16,699 nucleotides of DNA, from positions 1 through 16,699 of the forward strand of contig CAWEXY010000005.1 of NCBI GenBank assembly GCA_963813135.1. The letters run 5' to 3'. This document shows positions 2,446-16,699 of this stretch, one piece after another (positions within the stretch are counted from its first letter, which is position 1; each line of letters begins with the position of its first letter). The notes under the pieces were generated by a model. It did not search any database and had not been told where the DNA came from. It worked only from the letters and a program-made list of their open reading frames with translations. The translations under genes were made by a program, and so were the position numbers. This DNA comes from an uncultured Verrucomicrobiae bacterium (lineage in GTDB: Bacteria > Chlamydiota > Chlamydiia > Chlamydiales > Rhabdochlamydiaceae).

Positions 2446-3174
2446 TTAGGGAAAAAACCTTCTATATTCAGCGATACAAGCTCGAATAGGCAGATTACCG
2501 TTAAATTCTATCAATACATTCTTATTTTTATAGTATTCGACTGTTTCTATCAGATAGGGTTCGTACGTGTCGATCCTATTCTTGGCATTTACTGCATTGT
2601 CTGTATCCCTTTGCGCGAGAGGGCTGCCGCATAAGTCGCAAAGGCCCACCTTTTGAGGAGGAAATGACTTTAAATTGTAAATGTAATGACATTGACTGCA
2701 AGTTCTTCTATTTAAAATTCTTTGAAGACACTCATCTTTATTAGTATTTATATAAACAAAAATAGGGGATATATTCATATTTTCGTGTAAAAGCCCATCA
2801 AGATGCTGTGCCTGCTCTAAAGTTCTTATATGCCCATCTAAAATATAGACTTGGGGAGGCGAGGAATTAATCTTTCTTACTAAATCGGCTGTAACTTCTT
2901 TTACAACACCGATCGCTAAAATCCCATAAACTCGAATTTCCTCTTTCCATCTAAGGCCAACATCAGTCCCATTTCGGAACTCATTTCGTAAAAAATCACC
3001 AAGAGAAATATGAACAAAACCTTTATCGTTCAAGGATTGAGCAAAAGTGCCCTTGCCGGCACCCGGATGGCCTAGCACGACGATGACAGTAGATTTTTCT
3101 GTTGCAGCAGATGTCGAAAGGAAAAAAACTATAAATACAAACAAGAAACGAATAAAAAAGAAATTGTTTCTCAT
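2446..3174 (-). CDS. Adenylate-kinase-family NMP kinase with an N-terminal signal/anchor sequence
   Basis: P-loop GHPGAGKGT, HISLGDFLR, LDGHIRT (cf. LDGFPRT), zinc-type LID CSQC...CDLC. The N-terminus MRNNFFFIRFLFVFIVFFLSTSAA is hydrophobic. ATG 3174 is preferred over TTG 3198. Confidence 0.85.
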   Translation of the reverse strand: MRNNFFFIRFLFVFIVFFLSTSAATEKSTVIVVLGHPGAGKGTFAQSLNDKGFVHISLGDFLRNEFRNGTDVGLRWKEEIRVYGILAIGVVKEVTADLVRKINSSPPQVYILDGHIRTLEQAQHLDGLLHENMNISPIFVYINTNKDECLQRILNRRTCSQCHYIYNLKSFPPQKVGLCDLCGSPLAQRDTDNAVNAKNRIDTYEPYLIETVEYYKNKNVLIEFNGNLPIRACIAEYRRFFP

Positions 3175-3207
3175 AGAAGAAGCTCTTCGTTGACTCAATT
3201 TAGTTTA

Positions 3208-4236
3208 TTAGAAATCAGCGCCCCTTTCCCAATCCTTTAGGAAAGTGCTAAAAACGGGGTTAATATAATCATCGGATTGAGTGATAAGGCCTAATTCTCT
3301 AGTATAATCAATACTGTTGGTAAAGATATTACAAGACCCAAAATACATTTTCTTGAGCTCATCATCATCGATATCAATCATAATAACTTTTGAGTGAATA
3401 AAAGGTTCTCGAACAATCCTAATCTCTGCCCCAAAACGAGCAATCATTTTAAAATAATAGCTTGTATTAAGAGATTGCTCATTGAAACCAAAAAAATGAG
3501 GAGTATTGAGCACGAACACCTTCACGGATTTTTGCAGCAAGCCCTGTATAATCGAACAAATAGACTTGTCATTAAAATCTGACGCATAAATGTGTATGGA
3601 TTTTTTCGAGCTTAACAGCAATTCTTCTAAGGCCTTGCGTTGGTTCTCTGGACCAACAACAAAACCTAATCTTTCAAGCTGCTGCCCTTGATGTTCTAGA
3701 TTATTATAATCTCTAAAGAAAAAATCCCTTAGCGCATCGACCTTTTCCTTATCTGAGATTGTGAAACAAAAGTCACGTTTTTCGCATTTTGGAGAAGTTG
3801 CGATAAAGGCTAAATCATCTGCTACTAGCAGCTTGGGGTGATTGATATAGTATTTTCTATTTAAATAGTGAGGATAGATATTGTTATCGGTAAGAGTGTT
3901 TAGAAATTCAATATCTCTTTGAAGTCTCTCTTTCATGTTTTTTAAGGTTTGAATATCTGTGCCAAATTTCTTGGAGAGCAAAGTATAATCTGAGCCAACT
4001 TCAAAAAAGGGATTCGTTATTAACATGTGGACCTTCACTCCCCTATTGCGCGCATGGACAACCTCTTCCGCAAATTCTTGAGTGGGTATAGATAAAGCTG
4101 AGAAAGCAATGATTTCCTTGGCTTTTTTTAAACACTCCATTACGAAATCGGTATTCATTTCGGGGTGTATAAGAACTTTCGGGATGGAGTTAACATCTGA
4201 ATTATCAAAGCATGTTGGGCAAGACAAGGTTTTCAT
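3208..4236 (-). CDS. Phospholipase D superfamily protein (two HKD motifs)
   Basis: HPKLLVAD and HSKVIMID...GSCN, followed by RELGLI. Confidence 0.85.
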   Translation of the reverse strand: MKTLSCPTCFDNSDVNSIPKVLIHPEMNTDFVMECLKKAKEIIAFSALSIPTQEFAEEVVHARNRGVKVHMLITNPFFEVGSDYTLLSKKFGTDIQTLKNMKERLQRDIEFLNTLTDNNIYPHYLNRKYYINHPKLLVADDLAFIATSPKCEKRDFCFTISDKEKVDALRDFFFRDYNNLEHQGQQLERLGFVVGPENQRKALEELLLSSKKSIHIYASDFNDKSICSIIQGLLQKSVKVFVLNTPHFFGFNEQSLNTSYYFKMIARFGAEIRIVREPFIHSKVIMIDIDDDELKKMYFGSCNIFTNSIDYTRELGLITQSDDYINPVFSTFLKDWERGADF

Positions 4237-5118: not shown

Positions 5119-6210
5119 TTATGAAGAAAAAGGCTTAGATAGAGGGAGCCTTTGGAGAAAATAGGATTTTTGTTTTCTTATATAGTCGTCGTCTATTGCA
5201 TGGCGATTTAATATAGAAACAACCTCCTCAACATCATCAACCTTCAAGAATAAAGCCAAAAACTGACTTGTGTAGAATATAAAAAAGACAAAATCCGAAT
5301 AATCATGAAAATGTTTGAAATTAGATGGATAGACATGCAACTGAAGCCCCTCGTTTTTGCATAACTGTAACAAAGGTTCATTTACATCCCATAAAACGCA
5401 ATCAACTCCAACAAACTTGTTTTCATTTATTGAAACTTTCAATGAATTCAAGAATTCGGCGTTATAAAACATACGGTTTTTTACAAGATATTTATCATCG
5501 GTATTCTCCAATCCGAAAATTTGTTTTGTATTAATCTGGGGCACAATTTTTATATGCCTATCATTATCTACTCTCATCTCGATCAGCTTTTTCAGTGTTT
5601 GTTCACTAGAAGAAGTGAAATATATAACATCAAAATCTATCGTGGAGGCTGGTTCATTTTTGACTCGGTCCTCTATCCACTCGATGCATTTAGTCGCAAC
5701 AGAAGGACTTTTAATATCAATATTCAGGATGAGCGGCTTTTGCCCTAATTCAGCACGTATAGAATTTGCTTCTTCAACTAGATCGAAAACTTCCATGAGC
5801 TTGGGAGCCTTCTGACCATCTGGGCCGACAGACCACCCTAAAAGATCTGACAAATTCTTTTTACTTACGCAGAAACTATCTTGGGTTTCCTTTTCTGGTA
5901 ATGCAAGACCATCTCTATCCATTCCATAAACGTTTTTCCACAACTCATCGTCATGAATTACTAAAAGGTGTCCGTCTTTTGTCTCAAAAACATCCATTTC
6001 TATGCCATCAGCACCCAAGATAATTGCTTGTTTGAAAGATTCAATCGTATTTTCTGGCATCGCATCAGCAAAACCTTGATTTGATAAACCCATACCTCGA
6101 TGTCCGATGATATAAAGCTGCGTAGGCAGCAAAGACTTTTGGGAAATGCAGCCTTCCATCTTTTCAATTTCAGCTGGAGAAAACATTATTCCGGGAAAGC
6201 GTAATTTCAC
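5119..6210 (-). CDS. Glycerophosphodiester phosphodiesterase (GDPD) family protein
   Basis: [40 protein letters not shown]. The GTG start overlaps the nudI TGA (GTGA). Confidence 0.88.
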
Positions 6211-6689
6211 TGAACTAGCTCTTCTGCAGGAACAGTGGCGAGTGGAACTGAGAGCCCGCTTGGTAAAAAGCCTTTTTGCACAAACGTCCGACGGGTCGCC
6301 GCGTTTAAATCATAGTCTTTTAAATTGTCAGCTGGCACCCATGCGTATTCAACAAACTCCTCATTATGCTCGATGTCGTCGTTTTCAGCTAAGCAATCAA
6401 AAATTAAATAGATCATATAGACCCATTCTTTTGTCCCATCCGCATGAATCTTTTCACGCACATCATCCCTAAATGTCCAAGGAACAATTTCAGAAATGCG
6501 AAGGGCGCTTCCCAGCTCCTCCGCGATTTCTCGATGGAGAGCTTCTAACATTTTTTCACCAGGCTCGATTCCGCCACCTGGGCAACACCACTGCCCTGGA
6601 TAAACTCCCCTATTGGGGGGCATTTTGCAGATTAGATATTCGTCACGAACATTGCGTATAAGGGGACAAACGATCACGCGCGTCCTCAT
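6207..6689 (-). CDS. nudI: Nudix nucleoside triphosphatase NudI (YfaO)-like
   Basis: [11 protein letters not shown]...LICKM...RGVYPGQW, Nudix box [46 protein letters not shown] and YDLN.ATR, all recalled features of enterobacterial NudI. An AGGAG lies 7 nt before ATG 6689. Confidence 0.85.
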
Positions 6690-7212
6690 CGACATTCTCC
6701 TGGTAGTTTTTATGACAGATCATCAGCGCCATATTATCCACTTTCTTCCAAAAGCGAAATCCCGCTTTCTCATAAGCGCGAATAGCGGCGGCGTTAGAGA
6801 CGTCAGGATCGACAAAACAGGCATCAAAATCATTCCAAACGCGTGTGGAGAGAATTTTTTTGATGCTCGATGATCCGTATCCTTTGCCCAGAACGGAAAC
6901 CTCTCCGATAAATATGTCGATGGCGGCCAGCCGCGGATGATCGATTTCATATCCTTCTCTAGGAAAGTGGCCTGCATTATAGTATTGGATGTATCCGATC
7001 GGCAGTTCATCTAGATAAATAATAAATGCATGCAGAGGTTTTTTCTCTTGTCCAATCCATTTATATCCTTCGATATAAGTTCCATATTTCCCTTGAACCA
7101 GGCTCTCGGTCCACACGGTGCCCCGATCCCAAAAATTTTGGACATGGGGCGCATTGAGCCAGAGAAGAAGAAGAGAAAGATGGTCTTGCCGCAACGGCTG
7201 GAAAGAAATCAT
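6643..7212 (-). CDS. GNAT N-acetyltransferase (AAC(6')-Ib/Acetyltransf_8-like)
   Basis: [28 protein letters not shown] and [18 protein letters not shown] motifs. ATGA overlap with the upstream carrier gene. Confidence 0.85.
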
Positions 7213-7958
7213 AGCTTTTCTCTATTAAGGCAATCGATCAAAATAACACTGGCAACACTATTGACCACCCTTATGAAGGCGCTAAGCGGCAGTCCTCGAA
7301 GCAGCGTACGTGGAGCCTCATTGAAAAAAGTCAGTTTCACATTGTGCCCCATTTTTCTTGTGCTGGCAAGATCAAAGGGAGCCGAAGTTAAGCTCACGAG
7401 CAGAGCCGCACCTGTGCCCACGGCCGCCAGCTGCCCCACCGTCAACTTTTCTTGACCTGCATAGGCTAAATAGCGGCTCCGAAGGTCCTTTTGTGCCGTT
7501 AGAAACACCACCCAAGCGACAGTCAGCTTGGCCCAATGGGGCGCAAACCCTTGAAAGATCGAATAAGTTTTATTTTCTTTCGCTATAGAAACGATACGAC
7601 GTTGTTCAAGGGGAATGGAAACAACTGCGCTCGCTGTCCCAATGGTCAAACCCGTCACGGCCTGCTGGGTTAAGGGGCCCAGATCCCAGCGTTCTAGAAA
7701 GGAGGGCATTCCGACAACGATGGGCCAAGAAAGCGCCTTCAAGCATGTTTTACTAATCTCTTGCCCGAATCCATGATAAAAAACGCCGCAACCGTTTTTT
7801 TTGAAAAGCCGCCAAGCTATGTCATGGCCTCTTTCCTGATTACCTAGCTTTTGTTGGTGAATTTTCACAACCTCGAATGGATACAGGAACGTATCTACAA
7901 ATAAATTCCGCGCAAGCCCCAAAACGGAGCTAGATAGAGGATTGGAGTCCGAGCTCAT
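7209..7958 (-). CDS. Mitochondrial carrier family (SLC25/MCF)-like protein, ~249 aa
   Basis: Three repeats with the Px[DE]xx[KR] signature (YPFEVVK, IPLEQRR, degenerate APFDLAS), each preceded by a small-residue helix and followed by [YF]xG-like motifs (FYHG, IFQG, LLRG). ATG 7958 overlaps the MFS stop (ATGA). Confidence 0.78.
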   Translation of the reverse strand: MSSDSNPLSSSVLGLARNLFVDTFLYPFEVVKIHQQKLGNQERGHDIAWRLFKKNGCGVFYHGFGQEISKTCLKALSWPIVVGMPSFLERWDLGPLTQQAVTGLTIGTASAVVSIPLEQRRIVSIAKENKTYSIFQGFAPHWAKLTVAWVVFLTAQKDLRSRYLAYAGQEKLTVGQLAAVGTGAALLVSLTSAPFDLASTRKMGHNVKLTFFNEAPRTLLRGLPLSAFIRVVNSVASVILIDCLNREKL

Positions 7959-9181
7959 GCGGCCGCAAGCACCTGTTTTTTCTTCTTGGCAAACGCCAAA
8001 CATCCAAAACTGGCGATCGCAAGGGCCATCCAATACCAAGAAACGCTGGCTACCGTCCCCGTCTGTTTAAATAGCCAAAGAGAAATAGCGGCCGTTGGCC
8101 CGCCGAGCAGTTGCGAACCGAGGGCATATCCAAACGAAATGATCGCATATCGATGCGCCGTGGGAACCAGCTGCTGGGCCCATGCATGAAACGGGGCAAA
8201 AAAAGCGACGCCGAAGAAGACAAAACAAACTCTGACGCAAATGACCGTGAAAATGGAGGCGTTTTGCAGCGACGTCAGCAGCAGTGTTGCGGTGAGGGCA
8301 ACGCAAAGAGCCGTACCCATCATGAGCTTCTCCCGAGAGATTTTTGAGGCGACCCACCCAAAGAAAGGCAGAGCGCAAAAATCGAGTACGAGAAGACCTG
8401 TGTTCAGGCTCATCATATCGGTCTTGGAAAGGCCTGTAATGAGAGGAACAAAGCCGTTCATCAAAACGAGCGCCATCGTGTACGTGGCGTAAGCGAAGCC
8501 CGCCGTGACCACGATGAAAAATAGCGAACGCCTCTCCTGCCAAAAAACTTTGAGCAGGGAAGGCGTCTTAATGGGCGGCAAAAACGGCAGATGCCGCCGG
8601 ATCAGAAGTCCAAAAAGGCCTGTTACGCAGCCCAGAGCATAAAGAATGCGCCATCCTTGATCGATGATGTGGAAATACGAAATGGCCGCAACTCCTGCCG
8701 AAGCTAGTAAAATGCCCCCAATCGTCGACGCGCTGTAAATGCTGCTGATCATATCATGTTTTTTTTCAGGGGCGCCCTCGAGAACATAGATCGCGCCGCC
8801 CATCGTCTCACCGGAGGAAAAGAAATTTTGTAAAATTCTTCCTATGCAGAAGATCACGGGTGCGAGGAGGCCGGCCGTTGCAAAAGTCGGGCTGAGGGCG
8901 ATGCAAGCTGAAACGACCGCCATGCCGCCGAGCGTGAGAAAAAGGGCTTGTCTGCGCCCATAGGCATCTCCAATATAGCCAAAGACCAAGGAACCTATGG
9001 GGCGGGCAAGCATGCCGAGCGGGATCATCGCATACGTTAGAATGAGGGCCACGAGGGGCTCCTTATCGGGGAAAATAAGAGGCGCTAAAAAGGGGGTCAG
9101 AAAGCCAAAAAGAGCCGCGTCGTAATGCTCAAAGAGATTGCCGAAAACGGCGCTCCATAATCTTAATTTTGAAATACTCAT
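7955..9181 (-). CDS. MFS transporter, MHS/ProP-like family; probable thiamine or thiamine-precursor transporter
   Basis: GNLFEHYD, RPIGSLVFGYIGDAYGRR (motif A), RILQNFFSSGE; about 12 TM segments. Lies directly downstream of a TPP riboswitch, so the substrate is inferred. GGAG is 7 nt before ATG 9181; alternative GTG at 9187. Confidence 0.88.
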   Translation of the reverse strand: MSISKLRLWSAVFGNLFEHYDAALFGFLTPFLAPLIFPDKEPLVALILTYAMIPLGMLARPIGSLVFGYIGDAYGRRQALFLTLGGMAVVSACIALSPTFATAGLLAPVIFCIGRILQNFFSSGETMGGAIYVLEGAPEKKHDMISSIYSASTIGGILLASAGVAAISYFHIIDQGWRILYALGCVTGLFGLLIRRHLPFLPPIKTPSLLKVFWQERRSLFFIVVTAGFAYATYTMALVLMNGFVPLITGLSKTDMMSLNTGLLVLDFCALPFFGWVASKISREKLMMGTALCVALTATLLLTSLQNASIFTVICVRVCFVFFGVAFFAPFHAWAQQLVPTAHRYAIISFGYALGSQLLGGPTAAISLWLFKQTGTVASVSWYWMALAIASFGCLAFAKKKKQVLAAA

Positions 9182-9438
9182 AATCACTCTCCCTCCGCCG
9201 GCATTATCCAGGTCAGGTTATTTTAAACGCGAGTTCATGATCAGCACCCATGAATATCGGTATCTTTCAGTGCCTTTTGCGCCAAAACTCGCTTGCTGGC
9301 GGCGTCTTCGACGCCAGCTTCGCTTATTTTGGTGCAAAATCCACCTGAAATCTCACCGATCTTAACTGGGCGGAGATCCCGAACTCGCGTTTGTTAAGGG
9401 TTTTTCTCAGCCAATATATTTTGGCACCCCTGGTGGTT
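9182..9438 (-). promoter_or_regulatory. TPP (thi-box) riboswitch, aptamer interrupted by a ~168-nt insertion
   Basis: Minus strand, 5' half: AACCAC-CAGGGGTGCCAAAATATATTGG-CTGAGA-AAAACCC (9438-9398). 3' half: AACCTGACCTGGATAATGCCGGCGGAGGGAGAGTGATT (9219-9182). Both halves match the TPP consensus, and the 3' end overlaps the SD of the MFS gene. Confidence 0.9.
9225..9392. mobile_element. Palindromic MITE-like element inserted in the riboswitch
   Basis: Perfect 12-bp terminal inverted repeat AAACGCGAGTTC (9225-9236) / GAACTCGCGTTT (9381-9392). Nested inverted pairs ATCGGT/ACCGAT, TTTCAG/CTGAAA and TTTTGCGCCAAAA/TTTTGGTGCAAAA surround a central GGCGTC-TTC-GACGCC. No transposase. Confidence 0.72.
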
Positions 9439-9450
9439 TTTGATGCGATT

Positions 9451-9545: not shown

Positions 9546-10373
9546 ATGATTCTCGTCTACCTCCTACTAATACTGGCCACTCCCCTATCTGCAGCAGACC
9601 TTTGGAAAGGAAAGGAATACGCGCAAAACTCCGAATCTCAGCGCGTGTCTGCAGTGGCATTCCTAGAAAAATTATCGCTGGAGGGCAATGAGAAAATCTT
9701 AGACGTCGGATGCGGAGATGGAAAAATCACGGCAGAGATCGCCCGCATTCTCCCGCGAGGCTATGCTGTGGGGGTCGACATTTCTCCCTCGATGATACAA
9801 ACGGCAAAAACTACTTTTGCCGATCGAGAAAACGTTCATTTTGTTATCCGCAACGCTGCAGAGCTCAATTATGTGAATCAGTTCGATATCATTACCTCGT
9901 TCCGCGTGATGTTCTGGGTTCTTGAACAAGAAAAAGCGCTGCGTTCGATGTATACCGCTCTTAAAGACGGCGGAAAAGTATGCATTCAAATGCCCACAGG
10001 CCTTCCCGCCCCTTTACTAGAGGCCATACAACTTACGACTTCTCAAGATGCTTGGAAAACTTATTTTGCCGGATTCAATCCCCCTTGGCGCTTTTATCAA
10101 CCCGATGAGTACCGGGCCCTTCTTTTAAGAGCGCAGCTAACGCCTAAGCGCATCGAGGTCGTGCACAAAGAAGAATACTTTCCTTCTCGCGCAGCTTTCC
10201 ATGGCTTTATTCGCCAATGGCTCCCGTACTTATGGCCCCTTCCCGAACATTTGAAAGATAAGTTCCTCTCACAAGTGATCGATCTGTATCTTCAAAAAAC
10301 AGGAACTTCTCCCAATGGAAAAGTCCCTTTCTTTCTGGACCATTTAGAAGTCGAAGCGGTGAAAAACCCATGA
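9546..10373 (+). CDS. Class I SAM-dependent methyltransferase (Tam-like) with signal-peptide-like N-terminus
   Basis: ILDVGCGDG, GVDISPSM, FDIITS and LKDGG motifs; N-terminus MILVYLLLILATPLSAAD. Confidence 0.88.
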   Translation: MILVYLLLILATPLSAADLWKGKEYAQNSESQRVSAVAFLEKLSLEGNEKILDVGCGDGKITAEIARILPRGYAVGVDISPSMIQTAKTTFADRENVHFVIRNAAELNYVNQFDIITSFRVMFWVLEQEKALRSMYTALKDGGKVCIQMPTGLPAPLLEAIQLTTSQDAWKTYFAGFNPPWRFYQPDEYRALLLRAQLTPKRIEVVHKEEYFPSRAAFHGFIRQWLPYLWPLPEHLKDKFLSQVIDLYLQKTGTSPNGKVPFFLDHLEVEAVKNP

Positions 10374-11032
10374 ATTTAGTCATCGAAGCCAGAGAAACGC
10401 GCATCTTGGGAGCCTGTTTTGAAAACGATGAACTTGTCGATGCCTTCATGTTTTCGGTTCCTCTGGCCGATGAATTTTTAAAACGCCTCGAAGGAAAGAA
10501 CTTTGAAAAAATTCTCATCGCCCCGGCACATAATGGCGCTGCTGATGCCGTCCAAAAAATTCTGCCCGCGGGCGTAATAATGCAGCCCAGCCGCTTCTCT
10601 AAGCTTTGGCAAGAAAGAAAGCCTCTAACCTCTAGTCAGATTGCTAATATCTATGGCGCCTTGTATCATTTTCCTTCGAACGATTGCATCATCATTGACC
10701 TAGGCGAGACAATGCGATGCGATTATGTGACGAGCCAAGGGCAATATCTAGGAGGAGCTATTTTTGCTTTTCAAGCATCGGCAGACAAGCCAGCGGATGT
10801 CCTCGCCGACGAGCAGGCCACCGGCGCCTATTTCGGCTTGCTAGGCGCAGCCGAGAGAATAGCCGCAGAATTGCGCGCGACCTCTGCATCGCCCAGTACC
10901 GTCATGGCGATTGCTACAGGACTGCCTACCGCAAGCGAAATGCTTTCCGACGACTTAAGTGATTTTGTCGATGCCATCGATCCCTATTTGGCGATGAGAG
11001 GATTAAATGAAATTCTGAAGGAGAATAAATAA
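10370..11032 (+). CDS. Type III pantothenate kinase (CoaX)-like protein, degenerate motifs
   Basis: DCIIIDLGETMRCDYVTSQGQYLGGAI, IATG and DPYLAMRGL match the CoaX layout, but the DxGNT, GADR and DxGT motifs are substituted. ATGA overlap with the methyltransferase. Confidence 0.65.
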   Translation: MNLVIEARETRILGACFENDELVDAFMFSVPLADEFLKRLEGKNFEKILIAPAHNGAADAVQKILPAGVIMQPSRFSKLWQERKPLTSSQIANIYGALYHFPSNDCIIIDLGETMRCDYVTSQGQYLGGAIFAFQASADKPADVLADEQATGAYFGLLGAAERIAAELRATSASPSTVMAIATGLPTASEMLSDDLSDFVDAIDPYLAMRGLNEILKENK

Positions 11033-11033
11033 C

Positions 11034-12629
11034 ATGTCAGCCACAGCAAAAGAACTTATTTTCGAAGAAGATGCGCGAGAAAAACTCCGTTTAGGGATAG
11101 AACAGCTCGCCGATGTCGTAGGCGTCACGCTCGGCCCCAAAGGCCGCAACGTCGGCCTTCAAGCCAGCTGGGGCGCGCCGAATATCACCAATGACGGCAA
11201 TAGCATCGTTAAAGACATCGAATTTAAGGACCAATATCTCAACATGGGCGCTCTCATGGGCAAAGAGGTCGCTTCCAAGATGAAAGAAACATGCGGCGAT
11301 GGAACTACTACGAGCATTCTGCTTCTCCGCTCGCTCGTCCAAAACGGCGTGAAAAATATCGCATCGGGATCCAGCCCCATCGGCCTCAAGCGCGGCATGG
11401 ATAAAGCCGTCGACGCCATCCTCCAAGAGATCGACAAAATGGCCATCGCGATCCAAAGCGATGATGAAATTCAAAATATCGCCACCGTCTCCGCTTCCAG
11501 CAACACCGAAATTGGCCAACTCATAGCCGAAGCGATCAAAAAAACAGGCAAAAAAGGTGTGATCACCATCGAAGAGGGCAAGACCACTGAAACGGCCATC
11601 GAAATGGTCGAAGGCATGCAGTTTGACCGCGGATATAGCAGCCCCTACTTCTGCACCAACCCCGAAACTCTCACCGCAGAGCTTGCCCAGGCCAAGCTTC
11701 TCATTACGGATAAGAAAATCACCTCGGCGCAAGAAATCTTGACTATCCTCCAAGGCGTCGCAAGCACAGGGCAAGAGCTGCTCATCATCGCCGATGACAT
11801 CGACGGCGACGCTCTGTCCACTCTCGTCGTCAACCGCCTGCGCGGCCTCTTAAAAGTCTGCGCCGTGAAAGCGCCCGGCTTTGGCGATCGCCGCAAAGCA
11901 ATCTTGGAAGATATCGCCATTTTGACTGGCGCCACCGTCATCTCAGAAGATAAAGGAATGACCCTCAAAGATGCGGGCATCGAGGTGCTCGGCGAAGCGG
12001 AAAAGATCATCGTTTCAAAAGAGGCGACCACTCTCGTCGGCGGCAAAGGCGATGCCAAGGCCATCGCAGACCGCGTCAAGCAGATCGAAGTCGAGTCCCA
12101 AAAAGCCGCCAATGCCTATGACAAAGAGAAGTTCGATGAGCGCAAAGCAAAAATGTCCGGCGGCGTCGCCGTCATCAACGTCGGGGCCGCAACGGAACCC
12201 GAAATGAAGCAAAAAAAGCAGATGTTCGAAGATAGCTTGAACTCGACAAAAGCAGCGCTGGAAGGAGGGATTGTTCCCGGTGGCGGAATCGCCCTACTAC
12301 GCGCCAGCGCGGCCCTGCAAAACATGAAACTGCAAGGCGATGAGCTGACCGGCGCGCAGATCGTCTTTAAATCGTGCGAAGCTCCTTTCCGTCAAATCGC
12401 GCAAAATACCGGGTTCGACAGTTCCGTCATACTCGATGAAGTTCTTTCTAAAGAGACAAACTTTGGGTTTAATGCCCTCTCAGAGAAAGTCGAAGACCTC
12501 GTCAAAGCTGGCGTGATCGATCCTGCCAAAGTTGTGAAGAGCGGACTCAAGTTCGCCGCCTCAACCGCCGGCATGGTCCTACTTTCTGAAGTCCTCATAG
12601 GCGATGCTCCTGAGGAAGAAGAAAAATAA
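11034..12629 (+). CDS. groEL: Chaperonin GroEL paralog (no adjacent groES, no GGM tail)
   Basis: TLGPKGRNV, TNDG, GDGTTT, EGMQFDRGY, KAPGFGDRRK, GGVAVINVGA, GIVPGGG and GVIDPAKV motifs; ends in APEEEEK. Confidence 0.97.
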   Translation: MSATAKELIFEEDAREKLRLGIEQLADVVGVTLGPKGRNVGLQASWGAPNITNDGNSIVKDIEFKDQYLNMGALMGKEVASKMKETCGDGTTTSILLLRSLVQNGVKNIASGSSPIGLKRGMDKAVDAILQEIDKMAIAIQSDDEIQNIATVSASSNTEIGQLIAEAIKKTGKKGVITIEEGKTTETAIEMVEGMQFDRGYSSPYFCTNPETLTAELAQAKLLITDKKITSAQEILTILQGVASTGQELLIIADDIDGDALSTLVVNRLRGLLKVCAVKAPGFGDRRKAILEDIAILTGATVISEDKGMTLKDAGIEVLGEAEKIIVSKEATTLVGGKGDAKAIADRVKQIEVESQKAANAYDKEKFDERKAKMSGGVAVINVGAATEPEMKQKKQMFEDSLNSTKAALEGGIVPGGGIALLRASAALQNMKLQGDELTGAQIVFKSCEAPFRQIAQNTGFDSSVILDEVLSKETNFGFNALSEKVEDLVKAGVIDPAKVVKSGLKFAASTAGMVLLSEVLIGDAPEEEEK

Positions 12630-15361: not shown

Positions 15362-15734
15362 ATGAATCATTCTAAACGTCCCATGACAGCTCAACTTCGA
15401 AAAAAAATGCGCAAGGCCATCAGAAGCGCGGTCCCCAGACCTGAAGAACGACTTACCAATAAAGATATCAAGGCCGAAGATCTCTTGTCCACACTTCGCC
15501 CGAAAAAAAAAGAAAAAAGAACTCGAAATCTTAAAATCTGTCGAAAAATCTCTTAAAATTAAAAAACAAAAGACCGCTAAACAATCGAAGCGCACCACTC
15601 CAGGCCGCGTCGATGAAGAGCGAGAACAGCCTGCCGCCCCTCATTTCGTGCATGTCGAAGGCGTTCGTTGGACAAAAACTCTCCAAAAACAGACACTCGC
15701 GCAGAATAAAATCATGTCGCGCAAAAAGAAATGA
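15362..15734 (+). CDS. Small Lys/Arg-rich hypothetical protein (~123 aa), frameshifted at an A9 run
   Basis: The ORF from ATG 15362 (AGAGG upstream) stops at 15556. Removing one A from A9 (15503-15511) continues it as KKKKKELEILKSVEKSLKIKK...VDEEREQPAAPHFVHVEGVRWTKTLQKQTLAQNKIMSRKKK to TGA 15734, which forms an ATGA overlap with the next gene. Confidence 0.6.
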
Positions 15735-16580
15735 CGCTCCGTTTTGCTCAGATCTCAGATCTTCATTACGCCCATGCGTCTTGGAACCCCCGGCAATTTT
15801 TTTCAAAGCAATGGCTGGGGAATTTTAACCTGCTGCTCTTTAGAAAAAAGCAGTTCTTGCCCGAGAGGCTCGATCACCTCGTCCCTTTATTGAAAGAAAA
15901 AGGAATTAACAACCTCGTCGTCTGCGGGGATATCTCGTCGACCTCCCGCCATGCGGAATTTGCTATGGGAAAAGCGTTTATTGAGAAAACAGGCATCAAA
16001 ACGCTAGCGGTACCGGGGAACCACGATCACTATACACGCCAGGCCTATCGCGAAAAATGGTTCTATGATTATTTCCCTGCCAAGTACCAGGGCGAGTTCA
16101 ACCTCAAAGACCATAGCGTGGCCGCTGAAAAATTAGCTCCTGGATGGTGGATGGTCCTTCTCGATACAGCCATCGCAACATCCCTTGCCTCCTCCGAGGG
16201 TCTTTTTTCTATCGTGGCAGAAGCCCACTAGAAAGGCTCCTGCGCCAAATCCCTGAAACCGACCGCATCATTTTGGTAACCCACTACCCTCTTTTCTCTC
16301 CGGACCATGATCGCAAACAGCTTCTGCGCGCCTCAGCTCTGCAAGCGCTGCTCCGCCGCCACAGCAACGTCAAACTCTATCTCCATGGCCATACCCATCG
16401 CCACTGCATCGCCGACCTCCGTCCTGACGGACTGCCGATCCTTCTCGATGCAGGAACCGTCTCTTTCGAAAACGAGCGACGTGCAATTTCTTCGAAATTT
16501 CTGATCAACAATGCACCATCGACGTCTATAGCTTTGGCAATAAATGGGAAAAAGAACGGAGCACTTCTTTTACGTGGTAA
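15731..16580 (+). pseudogene. Calcineurin-like metallophosphoesterase (Icc/CpdA-like), broken by two -1 frameshifts (possibly sequencing errors)
   Basis: SDLH, CGD and PGNHD are in the first frame (to 16231). THYP and LHGHTH are in the second frame. A third frame gives a plausible C-terminus ...ATCNFFEISDQQCTIDVYSFGNKWEKERSTSFTW* ending at 16580. Confidence 0.8.
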
Positions 16581-16699
16581 AAAAATGGTATAGAGACGGA
16601 CTCCGATTCCAATGCACCGGATGCGGCAAATGCTGCACGGGAGCGCCGGGTTATGTTTGGGTCACCCCCGAAGAGATCGAAGAAATTGCGGCCTCTCTG
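16574..16699 (+). CDS. YkgJ-family (CxxCxxCC) cysteine-cluster protein, partial
   Basis: Not in the ORF track. GTG 16574 gives MVKKWYRDGLRFQCTGCGKCCTGAPGYVWVTPEEIEEIAASL and runs off the window. Confidence 0.82.
   Translation, partial: MVKKWYRDGLRFQCTGCGKCCTGAPGYVWVTPEEIEEIAASL

Follow-up and report, generated by a model that had tools for sequence, protein, structure and literature searches.

A compact mitochondrial-type carrier in a thiamine-linked operon of a chlamydia-like bacterium

What is a protein of the mitochondrial carrier family (MCF) doing in a bacterial operon, and which solute and which membrane might it serve? The question is raised by a gene (P0001; 7209..7958, minus strand) on contig CAWEXY010000005.1. 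The window analysed here is this whole contig (16,699 nucleotides, 16.7 kb), part of a 1.83-Mb assembly (GCA_963813135.1, hereafter G000) that is 82% complete. The carrier gene follows a gene for a transporter of the major facilitator superfamily (MFS), whose close homologues carry the source labels Chlamydiales, Rhabdochlamydiaceae or Chlamydiota. G000 encodes the type III export gate protein FHIPEP (E = 2.8e-226), and 3–6 TLC nucleotide transporters were found in each of five genomes (G000 and four relatives). The source bacterium is probably an environmental chlamydia-like organism with an obligate intracellular life.

Fold and family of the carrier

The carrier open reading frame (ORF) extends from the ATG at 7958–7956 to the TGA stop at 7211–7209 of the minus strand and encodes 249 aa, with a Ser-rich N-terminus and no signal peptide. 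It matches PF00153 (Mito_carr; E = 9e-11, 41.8 bits, cut-off 22.3), and in a six-frame PF00153 search of its own genome it scored 25.4 bits, above the cut-off. The first-pass annotation, made from the DNA alone, had read the gene as a three-repeat MCF protein with Px[DE]xx[KR] signatures of which the third is degenerate. The signatures are PFEVVK (residues 27–32), PLEQRR (116–121) and the degenerate PFDLAS (194–199). PF00153 was matched by all 129 relatives in our alignment (A2, 129 of the 150 representatives listed from the profile search). The family profile also matches UCP2 at 1.7e-22, as well as UCP1, Ggc1 and AAC, at the sequence level.

An AlphaFold (AF2) model of the carrier built on A2 reached a pLDDT of 93.5 and a pTM of 0.89, compared with a pLDDT of 47.7 from a five-sequence alignment. 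Its helices (residues 7–35, 64–91, 95–126, 138–167, 174–205 and 223–248) form three two-helix repeats. A clear matrix helix is present in repeat 1 only (44–55), with a four-residue remnant in repeat 3 (216–219) and none in repeat 2. All ten Foldseek matches at E ≤ 0.001 were mitochondrial carriers, led by UCP1 (8hbv_A; E = 3.8e-7, TM 0.74) and followed by the oxoglutarate/malate carrier and ADP/ATP carriers. The comparison with the ADP/ATP carrier that the first-pass annotation had proposed gave E = 1.3e-4 and TM 0.69 (1okc). The model is nearer to cytoplasm-open structures than to the bongkrekate-locked one (TM 0.55). Given that profile matches, AF2 model and Foldseek matches agree, membership of the carrier in the MCF superfamily is secure, and the three-repeat reading is borne out.

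The carrier retains the Q36 brace and two of the three matrix salt bridges. Conserved cavity residues across the family include R17 (88%), K74 (71%; K or R 86%), W78 (92%), P79 (95%), K144 (61%; K or R 84%), W149 (86%), F152 (91%) and Q156 (84%), together with K70, W76 and D110. Judged from sequence conservation, such a cavity would match a substrate that combines a diphosphate with an aromatic cation.

An exhaustive profile search over representatives recovered 413 members at E ≤ 0.001, 84 of them at E ≤ 1e-30. Their lengths are mostly 240–270 aa, and the compactness noted for the window protein in the first-pass annotation is thus a property of its relatives as well. Two of the ten weaker matches carry the source names 'solute carrier family 25 ornithine transporter' and 'hypothetical protein'. 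When the A2 profile was scored in 400 genomes sampled from the phylum, 91 matched, all of the same order, and 38 had a full-length match at E ≤ 2.6e-51. The view that bacterial MCFs are rare, host-targeted effectors, on which the first-pass annotation had relied, does not fit this spread, nor does it fit the position of the carrier gene in a translationally coupled metabolic operon (below).

The carriers of four loci (L003, f7; L005, f24; L006, f1; L011, f30) are near-identical in the tree, with end branches of 0.06–0.3, and their genomes belong to four GTDB families, which suggests that the operon was recently exchanged among chlamydial lineages. In the feature space of the ESM Atlas, the nearest neighbours of P0001 are compact MCFs of 242–244 aa from Nucleocytoviricota, and another near cluster (273 aa, score 0.93) is from Pseudomonadota; gene exchange among amoeba-dwelling microbes is only a lead here.

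Operon structure and thiamine-linked neighbours

The carrier start codon and the stop codon of the upstream MFS gene (P0002; 7955..9187, minus strand) share an ATGA at 7955–7958, and the carrier stop shares another (7209–7212) with the start of a downstream GNAT gene, as the first-pass annotation had noticed. P0002 would be 410 aa if begun at GTG 9187, matches the Pfam families MFS_1/Sugar_tr (PF07690, 1.2e-18), has orthologues in related loci and is related to proteins that their sources name as the MHS proline/betaine-like family. An ATG at 9181, 9 nt after a GGAGGG at 9196–9191, is the likelier start.

The pairing of the two transporter genes is conserved. We compared the 30 best loci, the window's own included, and found a P0002 orthologue (47–66% identity to the window MFS) directly upstream of the carrier on the same strand in 26 of them, which supplies the test of linkage that the first-pass annotation had called for. 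In 25 of the 26, the carrier start codon lies between 0 and 41 nt ahead of the last base of the MFS stop codon, and L008 alone has a gap; the overlap is an ATGA in 12 coupled loci and a TTGA in one. In the loci without an adjoining MFS gene (L015, L018, L030 and L022, the last cut by a contig end), the carrier stands beside unrelated genes (GH3; an ABC transporter and Fic; MetRS). The carrier frame is open and full-length in all 30 loci, a TAG inside the profile match of L017 being the end of its ORF. The MFS profile alone matches 178 of 401 genomes at E ≤ 1e-60, and the MFS gene is the core of the operon unit.

A thiamine pyrophosphate (TPP) riboswitch heads 22 of the 26 MFS–MCF operons, the window's split copy counted. 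Eighteen of these reach the Rfam gathering score, nine of them directly before the MFS gene, where one more lies at 52.5 bits. Two missed by Rfam were recovered (79.6 and 74 bits) by R1, a covariance model that we built from 30 of these aptamers. Of the remaining four operons, L020/L058 has no riboswitch within 5 kb and three are cut by contig ends. For 12 further loci, 5 kb of upstream sequence was fetched, and here the riboswitch lies in front of an extra gene of ~235 aa (9 of 12 by Rfam). This gene is of the TMP-TENI (ThiE/TenI) family in 11 of the 12 (L048–L057 and L059; e.g., L048 4297–5004), and in total 11 of the 22 riboswitches precede the MFS gene by way of a ThiE/TenI-like gene. In the five TMP-TENI-bearing genomes tested, ThiM reached its cut-off in none and ThiD was clear in one; ThiL was sought in G202 only, and was not found there.

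A second association is found outside the MFS operons. A sister clade of carriers is encoded, apart from MFS genes, in clusters of the order thiamine pyrophosphokinase (TPK) – MCF – (second MCF) – transketolase in four genomes. The full order is seen in L086 (3286–7999) and L087 (2553–7301), TPK is fused to an adenosine deaminase domain in L088 (1898–6950; 727 aa), and L093 (1–3637) has two MCF genes followed by transketolase, with TPK on another contig beside an MCF fragment. R1 detected no riboswitch in these TPK/transketolase-linked loci. A tree of 41 carriers separated a 31-row clade, 26 of them MFS-linked, from a 10-row clade, seven of them linked to TPK or transketolase (SH-aLRT 97 for each).

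In the window itself no TPP riboswitch was found at the Rfam gathering score. An E-value search with RF00059 returned two half-matches, 9329–9441 (30.7 bits) and 9173–9240 (30.2 bits), against a cut-off of 54.3. The first corresponds to the 5' half of the aptamer (P1 5' strand, P2, P3 and CUGAGA; 9393..9441, minus strand; 36.1 bits with R1), the second to the 3' half (P4, P5 and P1 3' strand; 9185..9224, minus strand; 29.8 bits with R1), which abuts the MFS start codon. Both halves retain every invariant position of a six-sequence alignment (A3). Between them, in the aptamer junction, this alignment places a 168-nt palindromic repeat (9225..9392, minus strand) with 12-nt terminal inverted repeats (AAACGCGAGTTC / GAACTCGCGTTT), and the Rfam threshold was missed in the window because this insert splits the aptamer.

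In the predicted fold the insert makes a single long hairpin, so that P2/P3 and P4/P5 can still form; over all 276 nt the predicted energy is -115.5 kcal/mol versus a shuffled mean of -73.3 (z -8.7). A second copy with 78% identity lies on contig 10 of the same genome (G000:C10:1714-1871, L064), which marks the insert as a repeat element rather than an assembly artefact; it resembles a small, non-coding element of mobile or repetitive extragenic palindromic (REP)-like type in the chlamydia-like genome. The element is missing at the same position in the aligned L002, L004, L025, L028 and L029 and in the contiguous aptamer of L094. Contiguous aptamers stand before the same genes in relatives whose carriers are 79% and 58% identical to that of the window, with scores of 64.8 bits (L002, Rfam) and 85.9 bits (L094, R1). 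Given these intact aptamers in close relatives, the insertion is recent. The Shine-Dalgarno-like GGAGGG that precedes the MFS start lies within the 3' half of the aptamer, and its position suggests translational control that may reach the carrier through coupling.

Candidate role, substrate and membrane

Given these associations, a role of the carrier in the transport of a thiamine vitamer is likely. We favour, with somewhat less confidence, the fuller reading of a carrier for thiamine cofactor acquisition that would act in the bacterial inner membrane and belong to a TPP-riboswitch operon. In this scheme the six-helix MCF solute carrier would serve an intracellular bacterium for uptake of the cofactor. 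The 3' strand of the aptamer would hold the ribosome-binding site of the first gene (MFS), to which the carrier is coupled by the ATGA overlap, so that a translational switch could govern both transporters. The carrier would be inserted with its 'matrix' face towards the cytoplasm and may import TPP, possibly against TMP or a nucleotide, as TPP carriers do for mitochondria, and the MFS transporter may handle thiamine or a different vitamer, or provide uptake driven by protons.

The gene content of the genomes bears on which vitamer would be needed. Searches for TPK returned nothing in either G000 (82% complete) or its sister G275 (91% complete), no ThiL turned up in the five genomes, and the solitary ThiE-like gene among them belongs to the operon of G202. 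Four of the five, G000 included, encode transketolase, and G275 gave a weak match below the cut-off. With TPK, ThiL and ThiE not found while transketolase is present, the genus of the window most likely depends on ready-made TPP. TPK was found in 18 of 38 carrier-bearing genomes versus 132 of 400 overall, and many relatives can most likely phosphorylate imported thiamine. Two other roles were considered. Replacement of TPK by the carrier was rejected on these TPK counts. Salvage of precursors, with transporters for hydroxymethylpyrimidine (HMP) and thiazole plus ThiE, was rejected with ThiD clear in one of five genomes (plus one marginal match), ThiM at its cut-off in none of the five and ThiL not found in any. 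The first-pass annotation had proposed host-cofactor scavenging, and the tie to thiamine on which that idea rested has grown stronger with the riboswitches, the TMP-TENI genes and the TPK/transketolase clusters; control by thiamine in the window, which it also assumed, is only putative, since the aptamer there is interrupted.

Several observations weigh against this reading. Since G000 is incomplete, genes not found in it may simply be unassembled. The presence of TPK in nearly half of the carrier-bearing genomes means that thiamine, not TPP, may be the usual substrate, and we give TPP as the specific substrate less than an even chance. In the window carrier, repeat 1 alone (residues 5–72) passes the Pfam threshold by itself. 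The third matrix salt-bridge residue is absent (S199 here; N in 63% and K in 12% of the family, consensus PFDxAN), and little is left of the cytoplasmic [FY][DE]xx[KR] network, with only D/E242 conserved (82%). Carriers with a weak cytoplasmic network may be able to perform net import rather than strict exchange. The missing matrix helices and the degenerate cytoplasmic motif are departures in detail, not in fold. The genus of the window has also lost D110 (D or E in 80% of the family, S110 here) and gained R230, and its cavity therefore differs from the family norm; as a speculation, S110 and R230 would make the cavity more positive and could fit a shift towards TPP.

The operon adds further points on this side. 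The TPP-controlled operon of the first-pass annotation holds in relatives, where the riboswitch is intact, whereas the aptamer of the window is interrupted and scores below the Rfam threshold. Twenty genomes were chosen for a strong MFS orthologue without an adjacent carrier; the sequence fetched from them contains no carrier ORF, and 14 of them kept the riboswitch: 11 were detected by Rfam, and R1, run on the nine without an Rfam match, gave three at 77–84 bits and two weak matches at 35–40 bits. The carrier is therefore dispensable. It also diverges faster than its partner (30–45% identity outside the genus, versus 47–66% for the MFS protein), and fast divergence with weakly hydrophobic helices would also suit a host-facing protein.

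For the membrane, the evidence is indirect. Placement in the bacterial inner membrane is moderately favoured by the translational coupling of the carrier gene to that of an inner-membrane transporter and by the loop charges, with 12 K+R on the matrix side versus 4 on the other side. Hydropathy was also profiled, and the carrier has ~1 window per protein at or above a Kyte-Doolittle (KD) value of 1.6 where the MFS protein has ~7. Hydropathy and charge counts do not settle the membrane location.

The carrier might instead be exported like Legionella LncP, into the inclusion membrane or host mitochondria, with the MFS transporter taking TPP across the bacterial inner membrane; by analogy with LncP this is conceivable, and we regard it as unlikely. 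It would explain why 26 of 30 loci retain a pair of unlike transporters when a single membrane needs only one. MCFs are eukaryote-type proteins that natively insert into eukaryotic membranes, and LncP is a precedent (excerpt of PMC3252375). The twofold faster divergence of the carrier, its Ser-rich N-terminus without a signal peptide and the FHIPEP gene of G000 point the same way, as does the moderate hydrophobicity of its helices, the niche of secreted membrane proteins according to an excerpt of Krampen et al. 2018 (PMC6110835). Low hydrophobicity is however general among MCFs, and the positive-inside charges fit ordinary insertion in a bacterial membrane. The gene is translationally coupled within a metabolic operon, and no secretion signal or chaperone was recognised with the methods used. 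The excerpted survey of Krampen et al. counts 36 proteins with transmembrane segments among 174 type III substrates, each with 1–3 segments; the carrier has six, which favours the inner membrane. A relay, in which one riboswitch operon would supply host TPP through the carrier in the inclusion membrane and the MFS transporter in the bacterial inner membrane, is a shade less likely again.

A carrier that merely rides in the operon and moves a solute unrelated to thiamine (nucleotides, CoA or another cofactor) appears improbable. The best solved relatives of the profile are UCP, GTP/GDP and ADP/ATP carriers and not a TPP carrier; to our knowledge, a TPP carrier structure is yet to be solved. In four of the 30 best loci the MCF lacks an MFS partner and stands beside unrelated genes, and the carrier is absent from the 20 MFS loci described above. 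MCFs of unknown specificity also occur in other intracellular bacteria (Babela; excerpt of PMC4378268). On the other side stand thiamine links of three independent kinds (riboswitch, TMP-TENI, and TPK with transketolase), which fall on two sister clades, and the tight coupling to a riboswitch-controlled gene. It is very improbable that the carrier has ceased to transport and is a decaying or accessory membrane subunit of the MFS protein: the degenerate third signature and cytoplasmic network, short loops, single matrix helix, fast divergence and lost D110 of the window genus would suit such a subunit, but the frame is full-length and open in 30 loci, the cavity shows strong residue conservation, confidence in the six-helix model is high, and two of three matrix salt bridges are kept with the Q36 brace.

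Other genes of the window, known systems and implications

The GNAT acetyltransferase downstream of the carrier (6643..7212, minus strand; 189 aa; PF13523, Acetyltransf_8, 1.2e-20), whose ATG overlaps the carrier stop, occupies the same operon position in the window, L002 and L094, i.e., one genus-level group, and not in 28 other loci. Its 3' end is overlapped by 53 nt by a NUDIX hydrolase gene (6207..6695, minus strand; 162 aa; PF00293, 1.8e-19), which is shared by the window and L002/L027; in L094 its place is taken by an alpha/beta hydrolase.

Further away, 10370–12629 (plus strand) encodes a 220-aa type III pantothenate kinase-like protein (partial profile match) followed by a Cpn60 paralogue without an adjoining GroES, and the same kinase–Cpn60 order is seen in L002 and L094. 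An adenylate-kinase-like protein with an N-terminal hydrophobic extension is encoded at 2446–3198 (minus strand); in L051 an adenylate kinase gene (2862–3569) lies just upstream of the riboswitch. Two overlapping ORFs at 15731–16231 and 16144–16593 (plus strand) match positions 1–89 and 137–190 of the Metallophos profile, and the pair reflects either a phosphoesterase gene that has been split or frameshifted, or an error in the sequencing.

Among known systems, the mitochondrial TPP carriers (Tpc1p and SLC25A19) share superfamily and fold with the window carrier, and they supply TPP to a compartment that is unable to phosphorylate thiamine, a situation that may hold for the window genus too. 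Yeast Tpc1p and human SLC25A19 reportedly have ~300 aa or more, three matrix helices and no RNA control, whereas the window carrier is bacterial, has 249 aa, one matrix helix and no third salt bridge, and lies in a riboswitch operon.

The thiamine transporters ThiT, PnuT, ThiBPQ, YkoEDC and CytX are TPP-riboswitch-controlled. Their genes, like those studied here, stand directly behind a THI-box whose aptamer extends over the ribosome-binding site; no MCF is known among them, nor any case of two different secondary transporters paired through a start/stop overlap. The TLC transporters (Npt) of chlamydiae and rickettsiae likewise import ready-made host metabolites, and do so in the same genomes, but belong to an unrelated 12-helix family (PF03219) without a known thiamine link.

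Legionella LncP and Lpg1137 are, like the window carrier, MCFs of amoeba-dwelling intracellular bacteria (excerpts of PMC3252375 and PMC5621508). LncP, which is not part of an operon, is reportedly secreted by the Dot/Icm type IV system and transports ATP in the mitochondria of the host, whereas the window carrier is operonic, MFS-coupled, riboswitch-linked and widespread in one bacterial order.

In excerpted sources, MCFs are described as a eukaryotic feature (PMC3355725), bacterial MCFs as a handful that includes 'a few Chlamydiales' (PMC5621508), and the specificity of the Babela massiliensis MCFs as unknown (PMC4378268). These Chlamydiales and Babela proteins are probably members or neighbours of the compact family; in the excerpts they are only listed or their specificity is given as unknown, and no operon, riboswitch or substrate class is stated. 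In our search of main texts, no paper linked riboswitches or thiamine genes with a bacterial MCF, and none named a thiamine cofactor transporter of chlamydia-like bacteria. A review of obligate intracellular metabolism (PMC10995303) mentions neither thiamin nor TPP.

MCFs have been treated as a eukaryotic hallmark and their bacterial cases as injected effectors; here a whole compact family is found in metabolic operons. The substrate class of the carrier is indicated by a metabolite-sensing RNA and by the thiamine genes nearby, which makes the carrier a directly testable candidate for the acquisition of the vitamin B1 cofactor by chlamydia-like bacteria. At 249 aa it is also a minimal carrier for mechanistic work, and a natural MCF that probably works in a bacterial membrane. 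If the carrier were exported, it would bear on the passage of solutes through the inclusion membrane. If the relay were true, the carrier would be the first pathogen-encoded solute carrier shown in the membrane of a pathogen vacuole, and an independent re-enactment of the plumbing of the early mitochondrion into its host.

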